This document shows positions 965-55,150 of a stretch of 64,000 nt of DNA, piece by piece. Positions within the stretch are counted from its first letter, which is position 1; each line of letters opens with the position of its first letter. Origin of the DNA: an uncultured bacterium (lineage in GTDB: Bacteria; Babelota; Babeliae; Babelales; Vermiphilaceae); the NCBI GenBank assembly GCA_963701085.1, contig OY969561.1, forward strand, positions 416,001 through 480,000. The letters run 5' to 3'. A model generated the notes under the pieces. It was not told the DNA's origin. It was given only the letters and a program-made list of their open reading frames with translations, and ran no database searches. A program made the translations under genes and the position numbers.

Positions 965-972
<8 letters not shown>
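1..972 (-). CDS. Continuation of the giant fibre gene in the shifted frame; open to the window edge
   Basis: The minus strand reads [35 protein letters not shown]...LKAGDTMSG...[23 protein letters not shown] with no stop, using the same repeats as the upstream ORF. Confidence 0.8.
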
Positions 973-14122
<13,150 letters not shown>

Positions 14123-41571: not shown

Positions 41572-42618
41572 TTAAGAAATGGTGCAATCAAACAAACGCC
41601 GCACAACATCGTTCTCTTCTTCTCTTTCATTTTCGATTTCTTTGCCAGACCTCGCGCCATAGTTCTCCAACAACAGGACAACTTTATCATATTCAGGATC
41701 TTCTTGCGCTTTATCTAACATTTTATCCAGCAACCTAATGGGTATTATGTTACCGCAATCATCAGTATAACTACCCAACTCATAATTAAGATTATAATGA
41801 TTAGGATTATCCAACAATGCTTCTAACGCTTTAATACTTTTTTTAACACATGCTCGCTCTAAAAGTTTTTCATTAAGTAAAATATTAGCATCATTAAAAT
41901 GAACAATTATTTCAGTAAAATTGGAATCATCATAAATAGCATCAATTAATACTTTCATACATTTTCCGTGATCACAATCAACTGCTATTTTAAGAGCTTT
42001 TTCTACATTTTTTCTATCCGTCTCTCTAGACTCACTCACTATATCGCTGCTTCCTACAAGACAAGCCATAAGCAGCTCTGTAGGCTTACATTGATCGTGA
42101 ACTGAATTTGTAATAGTATATGATTCCAACAATTGCCATAATTGTTCATCACCAGTATGGTCAGTAACACAACACATATCTAATACTTCATGTTGATCTT
42201 GAGAGCTATCAATAGAATAATAAAGATGATGACTTTTAGTGCAGGGCAAACTATTCTTTAAACAACCAAGAATAGTACTCTTCTTTAAAATATTTTCCAC
42301 TCCTGCATAATTCCCAACATAAGCAGCATTCAAAAGAATACGAATCATGCGTGAATGATCAACATGACAAAAATCATTGCTAAAAATATCCGGTGACTTT
42401 ATCGATCCTTTGATATACCAATTTCTGTTTGTTTTTTGAAAGTTATTTTTATTATCTGAATGTTTAAAAACTATGAACTGCGTTTCAGGTATTAATTCAG
42501 TAAAGTAACTAAACGTTACTCCTGATTTTAGAGACGGAAACCAATTCATACCAAAAGATTGCTGACTAAAGAATAAAATACTTACTACAATGCGTGCCGT
42601 TAAAAATGATATTTTCAT
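41572..42618 (-). CDS. Candidate effector: signal peptide, degenerate F-box-like motif, ankyrin-like helices, C-terminal CaaX (CTIS)
   Basis: FTELIPETQFIVF...QKTNRNW; LLNAAYVGN, LLMACLVG, LLERACVKK; ends FDCTIS-stop. Confidence 0.65.
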   Translation of the reverse strand: MKISFLTARIVVSILFFSQQSFGMNWFPSLKSGVTFSYFTELIPETQFIVFKHSDNKNNFQKTNRNWYIKGSIKSPDIFSNDFCHVDHSRMIRILLNAAYVGNYAGVENILKKSTILGCLKNSLPCTKSHHLYYSIDSSQDQHEVLDMCCVTDHTGDEQLWQLLESYTITNSVHDQCKPTELLMACLVGSSDIVSESRETDRKNVEKALKIAVDCDHGKCMKVLIDAIYDDSNFTEIIVHFNDANILLNEKLLERACVKKSIKALEALLDNPNHYNLNYELGSYTDDCGNIIPIRLLDKMLDKAQEDPEYDKVVLLLENYGARSGKEIENEREEENDVVRRLFDCTIS

Positions 42619-42798
42619 ATTATTCCATGTAATAATTATTGCAATGCACATTATGGCTTTTTATAATACCATTTTTCATAAATAATTCAATAAGACAAAT
42701 AAGCTCATTGTCTTTCATGAATACACTCAAAAAAATAGCACATAAAAACAGCGTGAAACAAGAAGATTTAGTTAACTGTCATGCAACAAGTCAAAAAG

Positions 42799-43974
42799 TT
42801 ATATTTTTAAACCAGCAGGCATTTTGACTGTTATTTCTAAAGCTTTAAAACCAAACAGTTCAATTTGGAGCTCTTTTTTTTCAATTTTTTTCAGAGCTGT
42901 CCAAGTAGCATTTACTGCAATCAGAACGCCATAACTCTCTGCATAAAGACAAGGAGACGATATTCCACAATGTGCTACTTCAAAATCTCTAAGCGCGCGT
43001 GATGTATCAGCGGATATTTCTTGAGCAAGTTTAAATTTTGTATATGCAGGATGCAGTTTTATATTTTCTGATTCAATAGTAGTACAAGCCGTTATTCCAT
43101 TAAGAATAGAAGATTCTATAGTAGCGTGTCCTTTGGCCGCATGGGTCATTTCATGATGCATCATATGTTTTATACAGTCCTGGCTTTGGTGAGCAAGACT
43201 TGGATTAAAACCAATAAAACAAGGTTTGTTTTTTTGATAGTCCCATAATTTTTGTGTTGGATTTTTATCAAGTTTATCCATAATGTCAAAATCTGTTAAT
43301 GATTTATCTACCAAGTTAACAATTGATTTGGGAGCCCTCAATTCAGCACTAGCTATTTCCCAATGTTTTTGATCAAGAAACCCAACATTAAAGGCTGTTG
43401 GATTACATTCATTTTCTTGTATTGCATCTGTTAATGCGTTTGCCAAATTTACTGGCAAATCAGGATTCCACGCTGTGGTATTCCATTGCTCCCTCAGTGT
43501 GGCAGTATCAAATTTATTTCTCGTTTCTAGCTCCAACATAAAGAGACGCCATAGTTTTGAATGAGGATCAATACCATACGCTTGTCGCAACTCATTTTGT
43601 GTATTAACTTCATGCGCAACAAGGAGTGCATTAATTTTATTAAATTGATCATGAATGTAGCATTTTGCTCTACCGATCGGTAAGGAACAAAGAATTTCGA
43701 CTATTTTATTGTGCAATAAATTTCTACTGCTTTGTTGTTGAAGATCGGCTGTTTTCAAAATTGCCAATCTTTCATAAATGGGCAACTTCTGTGCATCGCC
43801 ATTGAGAATGTCAATATTTAAAGATGGCATTAATTCATCATAAAATTGATCCAAATCGTTTAACATGGCGATGATTATATCATTTTTTGATTTTATACGT
43901 TTCATGCCAAACGCTAAAAACTGCCATGATAACAAAAATATAATACTTATACCAAGTACGGATTTATGCACCAA
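42799..43974 (-). CDS. Secreted protein with a C-terminal HExxH zinc-peptidase-like domain
   Basis: HEMTH plus downstream QEISAD; paralog of 45488-46672. Confidence 0.6.
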   Translation of the reverse strand: MVHKSVLGISIIFLLSWQFLAFGMKRIKSKNDIIIAMLNDLDQFYDELMPSLNIDILNGDAQKLPIYERLAILKTADLQQQSSRNLLHNKIVEILCSLPIGRAKCYIHDQFNKINALLVAHEVNTQNELRQAYGIDPHSKLWRLFMLELETRNKFDTATLREQWNTTAWNPDLPVNLANALTDAIQENECNPTAFNVGFLDQKHWEIASAELRAPKSIVNLVDKSLTDFDIMDKLDKNPTQKLWDYQKNKPCFIGFNPSLAHQSQDCIKHMMHHEMTHAAKGHATIESSILNGITACTTIESENIKLHPAYTKFKLAQEISADTSRALRDFEVAHCGISSPCLYAESYGVLIAVNATWTALKKIEKKELQIELFGFKALEITVKMPAGLKI

Positions 43975-44090
43975 AATCCTAGCAAGTAATAGTTTGAACT
44001 GAAACTAACAAAAGATTTTTTTCATTACAAGTAATTTATTTTTGTTTTTTTTCAATTTTTTTAAGCACATCAATCATCAGCGTTTTACTA

Positions 44091-45182
44091 TCATTGCAAG
44101 TTACAGGCCTCTGTGGATACTGAAAATGGGTGGCTGAAATCATTATAATCTTCATCTTCATCATACCCCATCTCTTGCAAAGTCTTACCACCAAGTTCTT
44201 TGTATAATGCAATATATTCTGCAATGTTAGGAATATCTGTTTGTTTGCATATTTCATCCAAAGTTGTTGTATTGATACCTCCATATGCACGACCCAAATG
44301 AACATTCTTCAAGCAACCATAAACGTTATTTTGTACCAATGCCTTAAATGCTTGTTTTTTTTGCTTCTTCATCGCCATAAATAATAATTCCAGATGAATC
44401 TCTTGATTAGGTTCTTTTTTATTTTTTAGAAACGATAATACTTTGATACAGTGTGGATTATCGTTGTACATTGCTATATAGAAACAATCAAGTATAAGCG
44501 CATATGTTGTACATAAACGATGCATTTCAACATTATCAACTTTTTCGCTCACAGAGTACTTTAATCGATCATTACTGTATTCAACTACCTTGCCATCAAC
44601 AACTACATCAAGCTCTTGTTTGACTTTATCACTATCACCGTCAAAACAGGCCATAAACAAAGGAAAAAAGACAACCCCATTTTTATGTGCATTCGATGCC
44701 AAATCCAACTCTTCAAATTTCTTAGGAGTTCCCTTTTTCCAATTATTGTTACCCAAATGCAATTTTTGAATAACAAACATATCACTAAGGCGAAAGCTCG
44801 TTTCTTCACTAATATCATAATCAAAATTACGTTGATTAGTACGATTAAGAATATTGCTCATCACCTCAATATTCTCATTCCATGCAGCATGCATCATAAC
44901 ATAAGACCAATCATCTTGACTTGGATGGAATGATTCATCATTGATAAGTTGATACATGTTAGGAGCTTGTTTGGTTCCAATTTTATGCCATGATTTACAA
45001 CTATTTTTTAATTGATTTTTTATAGATGGGCACGCAACAACAAAAATGTGGCGTCGAATATCTTCTGAGAACTTTTGTATATTAAACTGTTCTGTATTGT
45101 GAATCGTTAACATACTAAAAGATATAGTGTTACTCAGCAGTACGAGTGATAGAGCACTTATTTTTAACGCAAATGGTTGCAT
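44091..45182 (-). CDS. Candidate effector: signal peptide, F-box-like motif, ankyrin-like helices, C-terminal CaaX (CNLQ)
   Basis: IQKFSEDIRRHIFVVACPSIKNQLKNSCKSWHKI; PLFMACFDGD, LLFMAMKKQ; ends EACNLQ-stop. Confidence 0.7.
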   Translation of the reverse strand: MQPFALKISALSLVLLSNTISFSMLTIHNTEQFNIQKFSEDIRRHIFVVACPSIKNQLKNSCKSWHKIGTKQAPNMYQLINDESFHPSQDDWSYVMMHAAWNENIEVMSNILNRTNQRNFDYDISEETSFRLSDMFVIQKLHLGNNNWKKGTPKKFEELDLASNAHKNGVVFFPLFMACFDGDSDKVKQELDVVVDGKVVEYSNDRLKYSVSEKVDNVEMHRLCTTYALILDCFYIAMYNDNPHCIKVLSFLKNKKEPNQEIHLELLFMAMKKQKKQAFKALVQNNVYGCLKNVHLGRAYGGINTTTLDEICKQTDIPNIAEYIALYKELGGKTLQEMGYDEDEDYNDFSHPFSVSTEACNLQ

Positions 45183-45223
45183 ACACATTCCCAACTATTA
45201 ACCGTAGTTATAGATTATTTTCT

Positions 45224-45422
45224 CTTAGAGTCTATTCCTAAACTAATTTTTTCCTGCGCTCGCCCTGACCCTTCGACAAGCTCAGGAGTAAACACCCGCC
45301 TGGCCTCCGAAGCCTCGGCGAAGGACGGCTTGAAGGGTTTTCTTCGAGCGCTCAGGGATATCCTTCGACAGGCTCAGGACGAGCGCGGGAAGGAAATTTA
45401 ATATTAGGGATAGGTTCTTAAG
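45224..45422. repeat. Nested REP/MITE-like palindromic element
   Basis: Outer imperfect IR cttagagtctattcctaa/ttagggataggttcttaag; ttcctgcgctcgccctga/tcaggacgagcgcgggaa; two cttcgaca(a/g)gctcagg units; cctccgaagcctcggcgaagg hairpin. Confidence 0.75.
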
Positions 45423-45487
45423 AAGTATGCATTATTTATAAAAGAATTCAATTGGCAAAAGATAGATTAATTGAGAAGCTCTCAGTA

Positions 45488-46672
45488 TTATAACAACAAA
45501 AACGCTTTAGAATTTTGTTGTTCTCTTTTCTCAATCTCTGCAAGCAGTTCGAAATTAGTGTTAATCATACGTAAAGCGCCATAGCTATCGGGATAAAGAC
45601 TATCAACTCCCATTATACACTGAGCTGCTTTTATATCTTTTAAGGCAGGCAATACATCGGCAGCATTTTCATGCGTTTTTACATATTGTGCATAAGCCGG
45701 ATGTAACATTATCTGGTCAATAGTAACGTTCGGGTTATTCCTGATTATACTTCCTACAAGAGACTTTCTTTTCCCATCATCTCCCTCTACAGCATGCCTT
45801 ACTTCGTGCTTTACTGTCTGCAACAAATACGCATCATCTTTATCAGCAAGTATTGGGTGATAACTGAAGCGAGCTGGAGCATCTTTTTTATATCCAAACA
45901 CTGTTTTTGCTGGATTTTTTTTAGATTCTTCAAGACTTATCGATCTATCCACCGAAATACATAGTGATTGAGGAGCACAAAAAGTAGCATCAGCTACATT
46001 TAAATATTTATCCTGAAGAATTTTTACATCAAATGCCGTCGACTCTAGTCCATTTTCTTGCATCTCATCTCTTAACAACTGAGCAAATTTTATGGGCACA
46101 TGAGAACACCATGTTGTATCATTCCTTGGCTGGCGCATTGATTCCAGATCAAACGCAGCTTTATCGTTTATTTGCTTCTCTTGCATGTACCATTGGTTTG
46201 AATAAGGATCAATATTATAAGCTTGTAACAATTGATTTTGTGCATCAATTTTATCCTGACGAAGTTGTGCGCATATTTTGTTATGCTCAGCTTCAATCCA
46301 ACGCTTAGCTTCATCGCTTGTCATCATGTGATTTTTAAGAATTATTGATCTTTTTGCCTGTACTTCATCTATATTTTTTAGTTTTGGCTGAATAATTTTA
46401 TTAAATAGAGCAAATTTACTCAGTACCGGAAGCTGATCAACGGTAACGTTTGGTATTGTTACTTTGTTAAGCATTTCTGTTAAATTTAAGGATGGCATTG
46501 AATATGCGAATGCTTCATCCAAATATTTCTGAGTATAATTTATAGTAGGCCTTACGTTTCTACGTATACTGAATGCCTCAACAGCTTCTCTTGTACGCTT
46601 CATACCAAACAACACAGTATTACTGAACAATACAAGCGATATAACACTTATTTTTACAATTAATTGATACAT
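45488..46672 (-). CDS. Secreted protein with a C-terminal HExxH zinc-peptidase-like domain
   Basis: HEVRH plus HENAAD; shares MPSLN, QAYxIDP, TAFxV, LHPAY and LYxxSYG with 42799-43974. Confidence 0.6.
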   Translation of the reverse strand: MYQLIVKISVISLVLFSNTVLFGMKRTREAVEAFSIRRNVRPTINYTQKYLDEAFAYSMPSLNLTEMLNKVTIPNVTVDQLPVLSKFALFNKIIQPKLKNIDEVQAKRSIILKNHMMTSDEAKRWIEAEHNKICAQLRQDKIDAQNQLLQAYNIDPYSNQWYMQEKQINDKAAFDLESMRQPRNDTTWCSHVPIKFAQLLRDEMQENGLESTAFDVKILQDKYLNVADATFCAPQSLCISVDRSISLEESKKNPAKTVFGYKKDAPARFSYHPILADKDDAYLLQTVKHEVRHAVEGDDGKRKSLVGSIIRNNPNVTIDQIMLHPAYAQYVKTHENAADVLPALKDIKAAQCIMGVDSLYPDSYGALRMINTNFELLAEIEKREQQNSKAFLLL

Positions 46673-46692
46673 AACATCTCCTTTGTAGTTAC

Positions 46693-48261
46693 TCAAGTCC
46701 TTGAGAAGGATAGATTTGCAAAACGACGCACACGAATTTCTTCATCATCTGTCAATCTAATATCTCGCCGAGGGAGTTTCTTCAAAATATCTCCAATGGA
46801 ATCCATCTTATGTAATTCTTCAGTCGTCATTCCACCATTATCTCTATAAACTCTCATATTATCTTTATCAAAATTTTTATCTTTAATCATTCGATCTAAG
46901 TTGGTGCGGGTCTGAACCTCAGGCTCATGTTGATATTTCCACTTAAGCATATTGCATTTACAAGGATCTATTTGAGATATAAGCTCAAAAGCTTCTTTGT
47001 TATTTGCAGCCAAAGATAATAACTCATAAGAAAGAACAATTACTTCATCCTGAGCAATACCCCCTTGCTGTCGTAATAAATTCAACTTTAGCAATAAACA
47101 TTCAAGAGCATTATTTTTTTTATGGGGAGAACTTATAGAAGCCATAATAGATATACAAACATCTATATGCTCGGAAATAGACATACAAACATCTCTATGT
47201 TCGGAACTATTTTCCAACTCTTTTGATACATCTTCATCATCACCAAACAGCGTTGCATTCATGAGAGGGCTTTTAAAATTGTATATACTAAATTCAGGTA
47301 TAACTCTTAGTTTTAGTCGCATCTTGGGATTTGATTTTAATCGCTTCTGGAAAAATTCATTATGAGCACTATCAAATCTTCTGTTTCCAAGTTCTTCTAT
47401 TTCTTTTTCATTACCAATAAATTGCACATCAGGGTTTGCGTAAAAATATTTCTTATAAGGACTTACGATAAGAAGGTCAATTATTCTATCTTCCTCTATA
47501 AAAACAGGTGACATATCAACCACAATTACTGGTACATAGTGGGAGCGTAAAAAATTCAACACAAATTGTGGATCTTGATTTTTATAAAGAATTTCTAGAT
47601 TACGTCTACCAACTTCTTCAATAGTCATTCCACCATTCTTTTTATAAATTTTAATATTTTCTTGATCAAAAAAGAAATCTTCAGTCATATTATCTAAAAG
47701 AGTAAAGCTTCGACCCAGACCCATTTCCAACACAAGGTCATGAGTAGTAAAAGGATCTACTTGTGATACCAACTCAAAACTGTTTCTATCTTTAGTTGAC
47801 CTAAAATACATCTGATATGATAAGAATGATCGGATATTAGGCGGAACAGTCGAGAATTGTAATGATTGCTTTAGCCCTAACAATGACCGAGAAAGATCAT
47901 TATAATCCTTTTTTGCTATAGCAACCATAAGATTCTCAAATAGGGGTCGTTGCTCAGAATCGAGACCTTCTCTTACCTTTACACAACCAAACAGATCTCT
48001 AAGATATTCTTCATCACTATCTTTTAATGCTGATGACAATTTAGGAACTATTGTCATTTTTGATTTTAACTTTTTATCTTCTTCTACTAACTTTAACACT
48101 TCATCAACAGTCATGGGATAGATGGGTTCTTGCTTAACTGACGCCTGCAACTGCTTTTTATCTTCTTGATTTTTATAACGTACAATCATCCCAAAAGAAA
48201 TAGAGTTGCCAACCAACAACAGCATAACGCTTATTTTTAAAAGAGATCGATACATATTCAT
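46693..48261 (-). CDS. Secreted hypothetical protein with ankyrin-like helices and an internally duplicated module
   Basis: MNMYRSLLKIS...FGMIVRYK; PLMNATLFGD; FEL(V/I)SQ(V/I)DP...NGGMT occurs twice. Confidence 0.65.
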   Translation of the reverse strand: MNMYRSLLKISVMLLLVGNSISFGMIVRYKNQEDKKQLQASVKQEPIYPMTVDEVLKLVEEDKKLKSKMTIVPKLSSALKDSDEEYLRDLFGCVKVREGLDSEQRPLFENLMVAIAKKDYNDLSRSLLGLKQSLQFSTVPPNIRSFLSYQMYFRSTKDRNSFELVSQVDPFTTHDLVLEMGLGRSFTLLDNMTEDFFFDQENIKIYKKNGGMTIEEVGRRNLEILYKNQDPQFVLNFLRSHYVPVIVVDMSPVFIEEDRIIDLLIVSPYKKYFYANPDVQFIGNEKEIEELGNRRFDSAHNEFFQKRLKSNPKMRLKLRVIPEFSIYNFKSPLMNATLFGDDEDVSKELENSSEHRDVCMSISEHIDVCISIMASISSPHKKNNALECLLLKLNLLRQQGGIAQDEVIVLSYELLSLAANNKEAFELISQIDPCKCNMLKWKYQHEPEVQTRTNLDRMIKDKNFDKDNMRVYRDNGGMTTEELHKMDSIGDILKKLPRRDIRLTDDEEIRVRRFANLSFSRT

Positions 48262-48307
48262 AGACGCATCCCTATCAAAAGGAAAACAGTTATTTTTATA
48301 TTTTAGC

Positions 48308-49504
48308 TTAATCAACACCATACTCAGTCACCTCGACAGTATTAAGTTGTTGATTACGTTCCATTTCTCTTTGTCTTAGACCGTTATACACTAGTCTGTC
48401 GAAATAATCGCTCGCCATTCTTTCTTCAGGTGTCATCGAATATCTTCGGTTAGGCAAATGTTGAATAATATTACCAACATATTCCATTCTTTTTAATGTT
48501 TTAGCTGTACATCCACCATTATCTATGAAAGTCTGAATATTTTCTTCTCCAAAATATTTTTTATCTCTGATCATCAAATCTAAGGTGGTATATTGTTTAT
48601 GATCGTCAGGATTATAAACCTTAATCATGTTGGCATTATACGGATCTTTTCGAGCTATAAGCTTAAAAACTTTTTTATTATCAGCAGATGCACCTAAAAA
48701 CTTATAAGATAGACCTACTCTCGTCTCTTCGTCGGATTCACTATTTTCCCCAAAAAATTGCTTACCTCTTTGCTTTATTTTTGCCAAAAGCAATTCAAGG
48801 GCATTATTTTTTTTATTAGGATAATTTATAGAAGCCAAAACCGCATAATGCATATCAACCCCATAATCATCATTAAGATCAACGGGTTCTGCACCATTAG
48901 GATTACTTCTTCTGAGTTCTTTTTGTATATCTTCATCGTTTCCAAAAAGAGATGCCATCACAAGAGGAAAATTTCGATTTTCAGAGTAAGTTATCTTATA
49001 TACACTTGGATTTTTATTAATACAATTAATGCGTTTTTTCTTAAACGCTTTTCGAAATCTTTCTTCACCAATCTTACGAATTTTTTCATTAGAATTTGAG
49101 AAAAACGATTCACAATAAGGAAAGTAAAACGATTCAAGGTAAGGATTAATCTCAAAAAAATCCAGATTAATTTCTTTTTTCGAATCTGTATAAACATTGT
49201 CATGAACCAACATCACTGGCACATAATTATCTTTATCACTTAAAAACTTCTGCACAAATTCTGACTTATGACGATTCCTATAAAGCTTTTCTAGATTATA
49301 CTGACCTTGTTCTTCTAAAGACAAAGTCTTAACTTTCTCTTTTTCTTTTTCATATATAGGTTTTAAGCAAGATGAAATAGATGCTTGTATAGCTTTTTTA
49401 CTTTGTTCATCTTTATATCTTACAATCATCCCAAGGGAAACTGCATTACTTATCATTGCAAGCACTATAACGCTTATTTTTAAAAAAGATCGATACATAT
49501 TCAT
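48308..49504 (-). CDS. Paralog of 46693-48261
   Basis: Near-identical RBS and first codons; shared NLExLYxN, YVPV, PL.MA.LFG.DED, KKNNALE and NGGxT motifs. Confidence 0.65.
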   Translation of the reverse strand: MNMYRSFLKISVIVLAMISNAVSLGMIVRYKDEQSKKAIQASISSCLKPIYEKEKEKVKTLSLEEQGQYNLEKLYRNRHKSEFVQKFLSDKDNYVPVMLVHDNVYTDSKKEINLDFFEINPYLESFYFPYCESFFSNSNEKIRKIGEERFRKAFKKKRINCINKNPSVYKITYSENRNFPLVMASLFGNDEDIQKELRRSNPNGAEPVDLNDDYGVDMHYAVLASINYPNKKNNALELLLAKIKQRGKQFFGENSESDEETRVGLSYKFLGASADNKKVFKLIARKDPYNANMIKVYNPDDHKQYTTLDLMIRDKKYFGEENIQTFIDNGGCTAKTLKRMEYVGNIIQHLPNRRYSMTPEERMASDYFDRLVYNGLRQREMERNQQLNTVEVTEYGVD

Positions 49505-52936: not shown

Positions 52937-53656
52937 ATGATTTATGCACGTCTTTTCATCTGTACTATTTTAATGACAAGCTCATTAAATTCTATGGAGA
53001 TTGTTAAAAAACATACCCAACACAGTCAGAGTTTTAAAAGATATCTCCTTACTCAAAAGATATGTAAAAAGGAGAGCTTTCCTAAAGAAATTGGTTATTA
53101 CATAATACACTACTACTTAGCTCTCAAAAATAATCATTTATTAGGCTTATTAAAAAAGGAAGATCTTTTTATGGTCGCATGGGATAATGTTCATATCCCA
53201 ATCAACTACTATCACCTACTCACCTACATACAAATCGAGTTAATAAAAGAACTTCTTTCCTATCGACCACCTTGCGTACAATACTGCCATAAATGTGACA
53301 AATACAAATTAGACAAGCGAGATTATCGTCTCTGCGAAAAAGATTATTTTCTAGAATCAAAAAAAGATTACCAACTTTTTTTAACACTACCAATAGAACT
53401 AAGAAAATGCTTGGCACAAGCACCAAAATCATTGATAAGTTGGGCAATTGAACTACAAGAAGATCCTAGCTACAACTACAAAAACATCATCATTCCCAAA
53501 GCAATTAATGCTTTCCAAGTGATACAGGTAAAAAGTAAATCCACCGTAATCAAACACGATCTACTACAAAAACTCGGTGCACCTATCAAAGCACACTATC
53601 CTGGCTATACACCACGATTAATTGTTCCAGAAGAAAAGCAACTCTCACTGAAATAA
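52937..53656 (+). CDS. Secreted hypothetical protein, LPxE family copy 1
   Basis: Signal peptide ending SLNS|ME; FPKEI, FLTLPIELRKCL, LIVPEE. Confidence 0.65.
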   Translation: MIYARLFICTILMTSSLNSMEIVKKHTQHSQSFKRYLLTQKICKKESFPKEIGYYIIHYYLALKNNHLLGLLKKEDLFMVAWDNVHIPINYYHLLTYIQIELIKELLSYRPPCVQYCHKCDKYKLDKRDYRLCEKDYFLESKKDYQLFLTLPIELRKCLAQAPKSLISWAIELQEDPSYNYKNIIIPKAINAFQVIQVKSKSTVIKHDLLQKLGAPIKAHYPGYTPRLIVPEEKQLSLK

Positions 53657-53758
53657 CTCTCCCCCGGGCTTGATAAACCGGGGGATTTTTTATGGCATTA
53701 AAAATAGTCTGATGATATCTTAAGTGGCAAACAACATTAAAAAAAAAGGTTTAAAAAA

Positions 53759-54409
53759 ATGCTTTATGCACGTCTTTTCATCTGTACTATTTTTATTACC
53801 AGCTCATTAAGCTCTATGGAAATTATTAAAAACAACAAAAACAAAAAAGTTCATACGGAAAAAAACTGTTGGGGCAATGATATCGTAACACAATTAATTC
53901 TCACCCAAAGAGTATGCGACAAAAACAAACTTCCTCAAGAGATTATCACTCAAATACACGCATACAACTTATTACTAAAGCACAAACATTTCGAAAATAA
54001 TTTTACTTGCATAAATCAATGGAATGATTTTCTTATTCCAATAAAATATCACTATCTTCTATCACCACAACAAATAAATATCCTAGAGACTTTATTCAAA
54101 ACCAAACCTTGCATATTTGATAGCTGGGACGGGTACGGGGTATCAGGGTATATGTATTTTTTACCATCAAAAAAAGATTATAAAAAGTTTTTAACACTAC
54201 CAATAGAACTGAGAAAATGCTTAGTCAAATTACCACAATCAAAAATAAAAAATAAACTCACTGATCACTATATCAATACTAACAAAGCTATAGGTATTAT
54301 AACCTGGCGAACCAGAGGACTCTCTATGTATGCCACACAACAAAGCATCGAGCAAAAATTGATTGTTCCAGAAGACAAAGAGGATAAAATCTACCACAAA
54401 AGACTCTAA
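53759..54409 (+). CDS. Secreted hypothetical protein, LPxE family copy 2
   Basis: SLSS|ME; LPQEI, FLTLPIELRKCL, LIVPED. Confidence 0.65.
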   Translation: MLYARLFICTIFITSSLSSMEIIKNNKNKKVHTEKNCWGNDIVTQLILTQRVCDKNKLPQEIITQIHAYNLLLKHKHFENNFTCINQWNDFLIPIKYHYLLSPQQINILETLFKTKPCIFDSWDGYGVSGYMYFLPSKKDYKKFLTLPIELRKCLVKLPQSKIKNKLTDHYINTNKAIGIITWRTRGLSMYATQQSIEQKLIVPEDKEDKIYHKRL

Positions 54410-54511
54410 TACGCCTTCTCTCGCTCCAATAAGTCGAGGGATTTTTTATGGCGTTAAAAACATTGATATGATATTTTATGGTGAATAACAATCAACAAAA
54501 AAGGATAAAAA

Positions 54512-55150
54512 ATGTTTTATGTATTTCTTTTAATAAGCACTATTTTGATGACAAATTCATTAAACTCTATGGAAATTATTAAAAAGAATAAAGCTCAAAA
54601 AAAACATACCCTTGATGATTCAATCAATAAAGAATTACTTTTTGTTCACGCAATAACCAATAAAGAAGTTCTACCGAGTGAAATTACTAAAAAAATTATA
54701 TTACCTTACTGCGCAGCATTAAAAAATAAAGAATTTGAAAACAATTCTAACACATTCAAAGAAACTTGGTTTAAAAACAGCCTTATCACCCGCGATTATT
54801 ATTTTTTGACATCGCAACAAAAAGAATTAATGTACAAAATAATTACAACAAAATTTGAAGGCTTAACTCGAATAGAGTATTGTTTAGATTCCACCAAAGA
54901 ATACAAATTATTTTTAAAATTACCAATCGAGCTCAGGAAAAACTTAACATTAGTACCCAACAGTATAAAATTCCGCCAAATCTTACTACCAGGATCTTCT
55001 CTCTATATTAATCCAGACAAAACAATACAAGTCAGAACAACAGGCCAAAAAATCATGGTCATGGTCACCGTAAATCATCATTATTGTGATAACAGCATTC
55101 CAAAACCAATTATTCCTGAAGAAAACGAGAAAAAGAATCATAAAAAATAA
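54512..55150 (+). CDS. Secreted hypothetical protein, LPxE family copy 3
   Basis: SLNS|ME; LPSEI, FLKLPIELRKNL, IIPEE. Confidence 0.65.
   Translation: MFYVFLLISTILMTNSLNSMEIIKKNKAQKKHTLDDSINKELLFVHAITNKEVLPSEITKKIILPYCAALKNKEFENNSNTFKETWFKNSLITRDYYFLTSQQKELMYKIITTKFEGLTRIEYCLDSTKEYKLFLKLPIELRKNLTLVPNSIKFRQILLPGSSLYINPDKTIQVRTTGQKIMVMVTVNHHYCDNSIPKPIIPEENEKKNHKK

Follow-up and report, generated by a model that had tools for sequence, protein, structure and literature searches.

Candidate host-prenylated effectors with Sec-type leaders, F-box-like and ankyrin-like regions and C-terminal CaaX boxes in a Dependentiae genome

The window analysed here is a stretch of 64,000 bases (bases 416001-480000 of a single 1,198,634-bp contig, 37% G+C) from a bacterium placed in the phylum Dependentiae (TM6), Babeliales, through a homolog of B attributed to Candidatus Babeliales, and it carries two open reading frames (ORFs), named ORF A and ORF B, whose products each combine a Sec-type leader, an F-box-like stretch, ankyrin-like helical repeats and an acidic tail ending in a CaaX box. 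The cysteine of this box is conserved at the fourth position from the C-terminus (position -4) in the protein family, homology to F-box and ankyrin domains is present at the level of the family, and no bacterial prenyltransferase domains are found in the genome, for which a completeness of 92.6% is given. We propose that A and B are secreted effectors that are exported through Sec and type II secretion, farnesylated and membrane-anchored in the host, and able to recruit an SCF ubiquitin ligase, a chain of steps in which we place somewhat better than even confidence. The prenylation step taken by itself seems more likely than the chain as a whole.

Layout of ORF B and ORF A and conservation of the CaaX box

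The features of the two ORFs are as follows, with coordinates given as window positions; positions elsewhere in the same genome carry the prefix G000:C1.

44091-45182 (-): ORF B, 363 amino acids from an ATG, identical to public protein P0001, ending CNLQ-stop
44091-45194 (-): longer reading of ORF B, 367 amino acids from the first TTG at 45194
45111-45182 (-): leader of B, residues 1-24, MQPFALKISALSLVLLSNTISFSM, Sec-type n-h-c layout as read from the sequence
44967-45086 (-): F-box-like domain of B, residues 33-72, FNIQKFSEDIRRHIFVVACPSIKNQLKNSCKSWHKIG..., aligning with the Pfam-positive F-box of the paralog L001
44154-44681 (-): ankyrin-like helical repeats of B, residues 168-343, from fold matches
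44094-44153 (-): disordered acidic tail of B (residues 344-359) and CaaX box (CNLQ, 44094-44105)
41572-42618 (-): ORF A, 348 amino acids from the ATG at 42618 (MKISFLT...), ending CTIS
41572-42651 (-): longer reading of ORF A, 359 amino acids from 42651
42547-42618 (-): leader of A, MKISFLTARIVVSILFFSQQSFGM, from the sequence and the family alignment
42370-42516 (-): F-box-like stretch of A, TFSYFTELIPETQFIVFKHSDNKNNFQKTNRNWYIKGSIKSPDIF, matching B in BLASTP at E 0.003
41791-42072 (-): ankyrin-like region of A, residues 194-287 of the 359-amino-acid reading, sub-cut-off Ank_2 match
41575-41586 (-): CaaX box of A, CTIS, with an acidic linker in front

Translation of both ORFs reproduced the ends and the order of leader, F-box-like stretch, helical repeats and acidic tail that an earlier, sequence-only reading of the window had described. 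The C-terminus of B reads ...DYNDFSHPFSVSTEACNLQ-stop (that is, ...STEACNLQ-stop) and that of A ...NEREEENDVVRRLFDCTIS-stop (...RRLFDCTIS-stop). At the other end, IQKFSEDIRRHIF...LKNSCKSW starts right behind a hydrophobic leader ending SFSM in B, and FTELIPETQFIVF...QKTNRNW right behind one ending SFGM in A. The same reading had called the two ORFs strongly diverged paralogs, which agrees with their BLASTP match (E 0.003, 23% identity over the F-box region) and with the 21-22% identity between them in family alignments. Judged by these comparisons, A and B are weak but real paralogs and members of one diverged family. When 1.84 billion representatives were searched with a 13-sequence profile (A2), 685 proteins of this family were recovered at E<=1e-3 and 115 at E<=1e-10. 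At the stricter threshold the family was found in 6 of 261 genomes of the phylum, the present one included, with few candidates scored per genome; all six belong to the same genus.

The sequence-only reading had staked its interpretation on the conservation of the cysteine at -4 in homologs, and the counts came out in its favour. All 10 homologs of B from outside this genome (46-63% identity) have Cys at -4, behind a linker that varies in length and sequence, and end in CSLQ, CNIQ, CVIS, CIIF, CSLQ, CVVQ, CSVQ, CSIQ, CSVQ and CSVQ. In alignment A1 the Cys is at -4 in 12 of 12 sequences. For a wider census, the 150 best proteins were taken together with the earlier ones; 117 of these are at most 520 amino acids long, 88 of the 117 reach the C-terminus of the profile, and Cys stands at -4 in 55 of the 88. 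With 14 seeds and earlier proteins left out, the count is 43 of 74, with 0-2 cysteines at each of the other eleven terminal positions. A chance origin of the cysteines in A and B was rejected in view of these counts.

The residues that follow the cysteine are also restricted. Among the 55 CaaX members, a2 is I in 31, L in 11, V in 10, M in 1 and T in 2 (I, L, V or M in 53 of 55), and X is Q in 25, S in 20, F in 9 and C in 1. A Q or S at X marks a farnesyltransferase substrate, and an aliphatic a2 with Q, S or F at X is typical of the substrates of eukaryotic prenyltransferases. F and L at X are shared with geranylgeranyltransferase I, L being of the geranylgeranyl type.

In order to follow the box through the family, a FastTree tree was built without the last 12 residues and midpoint-rooted. 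Every major clade includes members with the box, which is found to either side of the root. Its distribution needs 13 state changes, no fewer than 8 of which are required by well-supported branches, compared with a mean of 26.7 in shuffles, none of which (0 of 500) was as low. The box, clustered in this way, has thus been inherited, with several losses or replacements. Taken together with the census, this pattern in the sequences indicates that the CaaX box is kept by selection at exactly that position.

Several relatives end in other ways. In three separate clades (P0013/P0020, P0032/P0081 and P0072/P0083) a C-terminal hydrophobic helix with basic residues replaces the CaaX box while the leader is kept. 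The ORF at G000:C1:201398-202285 likewise has a Sec-type leader and a C-terminal hydrophobic helix with basic residues. The C-terminal helix of such relatives would look like a tail anchor in a host. A further clade ends in ...FPF[LY]T, resembling the C-terminal ends of the box-less A-type orthologs of the sister genomes G253 and G257.

F-box homology, ankyrin body and occurrence of the same architecture

The F-box assignment is carried by the family. An in-genome paralog, L001 (G000:C1:290753-292174), matches B in phmmer at E 7e-13 and passes the Pfam F-box model PF00646 (25.6 bits, cut-off 20.5) at the very stretch that aligns with FNIQKFSEDIRRHIF...CKSW of B. At E<=0.01, PF00646 matches 10 and PF12937 5 of 117 family members. 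A profile of 55 positions (A4) was built from the N-terminal stretches of 25 members, one per member and A included, and has the consensus F..LP.E....IF.......N....T.K.W...GS...P. Searched against the sequences of solved structures, this profile matched almost exclusively F-box proteins, each aligned at its own F-box, with FBXO4 at E 3.7e-5, TIR1 at 0.0021, FBXW7 at 0.0073, Skp2 at 0.018 and FBH1 at 0.02; weaker matches, above E 0.1, were obtained to FBXO31, FBXL5 and Cdc4. The F-box-like stretch of A also matches the family profile, though A was among its 25 sequences. The F-box stretch is conserved among members that share just about 20% identity.

Structure prediction is in keeping with this assignment when the alignment is deep. 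With a 117-sequence alignment, AlphaFold2 modelled B at a predicted local distance difference test score (pLDDT) of 86.9 and a predicted template modelling score of 0.82, and placed three helices in the F-box region (residues 40-49, 52-61 and 63-69) at pLDDT 93-95. With only 12 sequences, the same region came out at pLDDT 38-56. At the level of the family, the F-box homology of the N-terminal stretch is supported by these sequence comparisons. A search for Skp1 itself (PF01466) gave 0 matches in 261 Dependentiae genomes, a result of little weight since the control matched nowhere.

The body of the proteins had been read as ankyrin-like, and profile matches in relatives and fold comparisons support this. 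In alignment A1, 11 of 12 members have a Pfam Ank_2 match at E<=1 (best E 4.4e-6), as have 45 of 117 members of the larger set A3 at E<=0.01. Foldseek returned nothing at E<=0.001 against the Protein Data Bank for either of the two models of B. Both models were also compared with 48,161 chains by VIA-align, and natural or designed ankyrin-repeat proteins made up most of the top 50 matches, which spanned model residues 168-343. The best match was Legionella AnkC (5vrq_A), with Z 8.5 for the first model and 8.1 for the second and a root-mean-square deviation of 4.7 over 134 residues; rank 50 lay at Z 6.1-6.5, and Z values of this size are middling according to the notes of the tool. The ankyrin fold is assigned because ankyrin proteins form the majority of the VIA-align matches and because relatives have Pfam hits. 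The helical repeats of B probably start near residue 89. At the other end, both models show the final 20 residues as disordered coil with pLDDT 33-55 (50-55 for residues 344-359 in the second), as would suit a flexible tail that presents the CaaX box.

The same combination recurs in the genome and in the phylum. The family F-box profile matches eight ORFs of this genome, four of which, including A and B, end in CaaX. Two further proteins of this architecture lie in tandem:

G000:C1:216484-217683 (-): L002, leader and F-box, ending CAIL, Pfam F-box about at the cut-off
G000:C1:217665-218558 (-): L003, leader and F-box, ending CTIL, in tandem with L002

Two homologs of the 217665-218558 protein from outside the genome end in CTIL and CYIQ, and in this second F-box family all four members have a CaaX box (CAIL, CTIL, CTIL and CYIQ). 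Across the phylum, PF00646 is matched at E<=1e-6 in 12 of 261 genomes, all of other genera. With these matches 14 ORFs were recovered, 12 of them complete, and three of the 12, from two other Dependentiae families, have a leader and end in CQIL, CQIL and CAIQ.

Boxes of this kind are also seen on leader-bearing proteins outside the F-box family. The ankyrin protein L005 at G000:C1:789900-790844 (+) ends in CIIL, and its closest orthologs in CTIQ and CIVQ. The leader protein at G000:C1:321879-322415 (-) ends in CIIS, a neighbouring paralog in CILF and an ortholog in CIVS; the group with the CIIS and CILF paralogs (L004 and L010) spans G000:C1:321879-323542 (-).

Export, proposed mechanism and rival explanations

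The leader of B is read as a short n-region (MQPFALK), a hydrophobic h-region (ISALSLVLL) and a c-region (SNTISFS, followed by M), and its cleavage is inferred between S23 and M24 from this layout. The leader is conserved across the family, with Met ending it in the majority consensus. This junction is common in the genome. Among 582 ORFs with an N-terminal hydrophobic region, Met was counted 47-51 times at offsets 15-17 from the start of that region, against a background of 2.45%. Such a Met is present in 335 ORFs, with A, G or S before it in 178 and Glu after it in 88. Altogether, some 180-260 ORFs of the genome have a leader ending in [A/G/S]-Met, often followed by Glu, and the [A/G/S]-Met junction is also seen in F-box proteins of other Dependentiae families (loci L040, L043, L044, L051 and L052). 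Were signal peptidase to cleave ahead of this Met, the mature N-terminus would be Met-Glu.

The Sec-initiated route that had been proposed from these leaders is consistent with published data on the phylum (PMC4378268, PMC6561590). In Babela massiliensis, signal peptides were found on 79 of 126 ankyrin proteins, for which secretion into the amoeba cytoplasm was proposed through type II, the only secretion system found (PMC4378268). Two copies of gspD were present in all seven TM6 genomes examined in another study (PMC4776705). In Chromulinavorax destructans, signal peptides occur on 44% of coding sequences and on 78% of 98 ankyrin proteins; the organism lies massed in the cytoplasm of its host and releases outer-membrane vesicles (PMC6561590). 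The genome studied here has two secretins and no match to the CagE/TrbE/VirB4 domain (PF03135), a model that may miss a type IVB ATPase. Neither the prenyltransferase beta domain (PF00432) nor the alpha-repeat domain (PF01239) was found in it, as expected from the earlier statement that bacteria lack CaaX prenyltransferases, and any prenylation would consequently be the work of the host.

From these elements the following course can be proposed. The leader would direct the protein through Sec into the periplasm and would be cut, probably between a small residue and the conserved Met. Going by the literature on relatives, the type II secretin system or outer-membrane vesicles might then release the protein into the protist cytosol. 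There, as the motif and its conservation suggest, host farnesyltransferase would lipidate the cysteine of the CaaX box, presented by the acidic flexible tail; host enzymes would trim and methylate the C-terminus after farnesylation, and the farnesylated protein would be anchored on the cytosolic face of host endomembranes. By their domain identity, the F-box would bind host Skp1 and hence the SCF ubiquitin ligase, and the degenerate ankyrin repeats would select the target as the substrate-binding part.

A number of results weigh against this reading. The F-box claim of the sequence-only reading stands for the family, through the Pfam match of L001 and the A4 matches to solved F-box proteins, but not for the two proteins by themselves, as neither A nor B has a match to PF00646 or PF12937 at E<=1 on its own sequence. 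Where the family consensus has LP, B has FS, and a Ser takes the place of this Pro in 3 of 11 B-type sequences, B among them. The fold searches with whole models were dominated by ankyrin matches, and the F-box fold was seen only as the helices of the AlphaFold2 model. The Ank_2 matches of the two proteins, at 18.5 bits in B and 16.6 bits (E 0.012) in A, lie under the cut-off of 27.3. The CaaX box is missing from 33 of the 88 members that reach the C-terminus, from the syntenic A-type orthologs in G253 and G257, and from the only outside homolog of A that a word search returned. In the relatives that carry a leader and a C-terminal helix, such a helix would serve in a bacterium as an inner-membrane anchor, which does not fit simple secretion. 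Nor is there a genome-wide excess of cysteine at -4, with 28 among 1132 crude ORFs compared with 10-25 at neighbouring positions, and with 7 of 182 leader proteins having it, not above other positions. As for the enrichment of CaaX among signal-peptide proteins, which had been suggested as a check, the canonical pattern is only modestly enriched in leader proteins (5 of 264 compared with 3 of 868, Fisher p 0.02), without any general excess of cysteine at -4. Finally, a Sec leader alone brings a protein only to the periplasm, and the further passage to the host cytosol is only proposed here.

Some of these points are shared by other explanations. The proteins could be secreted and prenylated by the host but carry a degenerate F-box that recruits no SCF, in which case they would be tethered to membranes and use their ankyrin repeats to sequester a host protein or move it elsewhere. 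The failure of Pfam for A and B alone, the lost Pro of the LP motif in B and the low pLDDT of the F-box region in the shallow-alignment model all speak for such a degenerate domain. On the other hand, the family profile finds solved F-box proteins precisely at their F-box (best E 3.7e-5), the stretch has stayed conserved where members retain about 20% identity, and with the deep alignment the three helices are predicted with high pLDDT; we therefore regard tethered binding without SCF recruitment as unlikely. The C-terminal cysteine could instead belong to a bacterial sorting tag that a bacterial enzyme lipidates once Sec has exported the protein and that an Rce1-like CPBP protease trims, with the protein then displayed on the surface via type II secretion, for which MYXO-CTERM offers a precedent in its sequence of Sec export, Cys lipidation, CPBP cleavage and type II export (PMC11980579). 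The genome does encode the two secretins and, as a point against host prenylation, a single CPBP/Rce1-like domain (47.8 bits) in a 1137-amino-acid polytopic membrane ORF at G000:C1:88319-91732 (-), and the C-terminus of some family members is a hydrophobic helix with basic residues. However, a single CPBP copy carries little weight, as 11 of 14 control genomes also encode such proteases, A and B have just three residues after the Cys with neither a transmembrane helix nor a basic cluster, a scan of the ORFs of the genome showed no evident family of tripartite C-terminal tags, and the preferences at a2 and X are those of eukaryotic prenyltransferase substrates. We give the sorting tag only a small chance.

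A third explanation is that the proteins stay in the periplasm or envelope, where the Cys would serve for a disulfide, metal binding or as a degradation signal and the likeness to CaaX would be coincidental. A Sec-type leader does by itself predict a periplasmic location, and the absence of an overall excess of Cys at -4 in the genome would agree with coincidence. Yet no partners of F-box or ankyrin domains are known from the bacterial periplasm, the Cys is fixed at exactly -4 with an aliphatic a2 after it in nearly all of the 55 boxes, and a disordered, variable tail is not suited to a structural disulfide or a metal site, all of which makes this explanation very improbable. Secreted, host-farnesylated SCF adaptors remain the reading that we prefer.

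Relation to known systems and the surrounding genome

The proposed design is that of a known effector. AnkB of Legionella pneumophila has an F-box, ankyrin repeats and a CaaX box that needs host farnesylation, and it is injected by Dot/Icm (PMC2916131). AnkB and A/B share the order of N-terminal F-box, ankyrin repeats, flexible end and farnesyl-type CaaX, as well as the proposed logic, in which an SCF adaptor is held on the cytosolic side of host membranes by farnesylation in the host. AnkB alleles swap the CaaX box for a di-lysine end (PMC5506055), and the C-terminal anchor is likewise swapped in the A/B family, which has mostly CaaX, some hydrophobic tails and some members with neither. AnkB differs in being a substrate of a type IV system (Dot/Icm) without a Sec leader, whereas A and B have a cleavable-looking leader in a genome with two secretins and no match to a VirB4-type ATPase. 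In addition, the position of Cys169 in AnkB implies a protein about half as long as A and B (PMC2916131), and the setting is a protist host instead of the macrophage. Legionella AnkB was not among the matches of the profile searches of solved-structure sequences, and what is shared is domain types only. As a sequence relationship to AnkB is not demonstrated, the likeness appears convergent.

Poxviruses and Orientia tsutsugamushi also have proteins with ankyrin repeats and an F-box that engage host SCF1. To our knowledge, these proteins carry their F-box-like (PRANC) domain at the C-terminus and lack a CaaX box. Ankyrin proteins of Orientia are reported as type I secretion substrates (PMC4315096). 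The signal-peptide ankyrin proteins of Babela and Chromulinavorax belong to the same phylum and the same putative effector class as A and B; the Babela paper reports one F-box protein, and the available text of PMC4378268 and PMC6561590 contains no mention of a CaaX box, unlike what is found for A and B. The MYXO-CTERM proteins resemble A and B in the Sec leader, the C-terminal motif with an invariant Cys, the link to type II secretion and the CPBP protease in the genome, but their tags have three parts, a Cys motif, a transmembrane helix and an Arg-rich end (PMC11980579), whereas A and B stop three residues past the Cys.

No literature linking CaaX or prenylation with Dependentiae was found, although supplementary tables could contain such proteins uncommented. 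Among the matches listed, papers combining CaaX with F-box, ankyrin, amoeba or symbiont mostly concerned Legionella, the others being a review of toxin systems and a chlamydial preprint on prenyltransferase domains, and no CaaX or prenylated effector with a signal peptide and type II secretion of the A/B kind appeared among the matches listed.

Dependentiae are widespread obligate parasites of protists with hundreds of signal-peptide proteins that carry eukaryote-like domains and with no known injection machinery, and arrival of these proteins in the host cytosol has so far been an assumption. As a CaaX box serves only a protein that meets a eukaryotic prenyltransferase, its positional conservation in a leader-bearing family is sequence evidence for such arrival. 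If the proposal is correct, mimicry of host-prenylation substrates is not confined to Legionella and Salmonella but also occurs in a distant phylum and along a Sec/type II route, and the AnkB design has been reached by convergence. A broader and more tentative idea, which we consider doubtful, is that CaaX boxes on Sec-leader proteins act as an evolutionary reporter that Sec/type II exports of Dependentiae routinely reach the host cytosol, with the phylum-wide leader junction forming part of the adaptation and the effectors being disguised at both ends. Cleavage between [A/G/S] and Met-Glu would then leave a Met-Glu/Asp start that resembles native eukaryotic proteins and avoids N-degron recognition, and the C-terminus would be lipidated by the host.

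Both ORFs lie in a row of six consecutive leader-bearing genes on the minus strand (49504-41572), in order X2, X1, M2, B, M1 and A, which make up three paralog pairs. The pairs other than A and B are:

48308-49504 and 46693-48321 (-): X2 and X1, leader-bearing paralogs, 34% identity
45488-46696 (M2) and 42799-43974 (M1) (-): leader-bearing paralogs, 29% identity, E 6e-54

An HExxH motif is present in both M1 and M2, together with a weak SprT-like match, and by these motifs the two may be metalloproteases. The arrangement of the 41572-49504 cluster suggests a duplicated two-gene module of a putative protease and an F-box protein. Genes for carD and a miaA-like product come after ORF A in gene order, and the sister genomes G253 and G257 have a comparable cluster that is also next to carD.

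Traces of the region are present in public environmental data. A 176-base contig from a soil metatranscriptome run (X20) is identical to 42594-42769, that is, to the 5' end of ORF A and the spacer upstream of it; the sole RNA run otherwise gave 30-base scraps, and this identity does not prove transcription of ORF A. Near-identical DNA fragments of the region were found at low depth in lake, freshwater and soil metagenomes, and gaps in this coverage carry no meaning.

Other leader-bearing ORFs lie within and beside the window. A 4385-amino-acid ORF at 965-14122 (-) has a leader ending ...AVAKAM followed by ADRS, and the leader of a 1271-amino-acid ORF just upstream of the window (G000:C1:405505-409320) resembles it. 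At 52937-55150 (+), three tandem genes of about 212-239 amino acids have near-identical leaders (M.YARLFICTI.MTSSLNSM, then EI), and this trio looks like a local expansion of a family of small secreted proteins.

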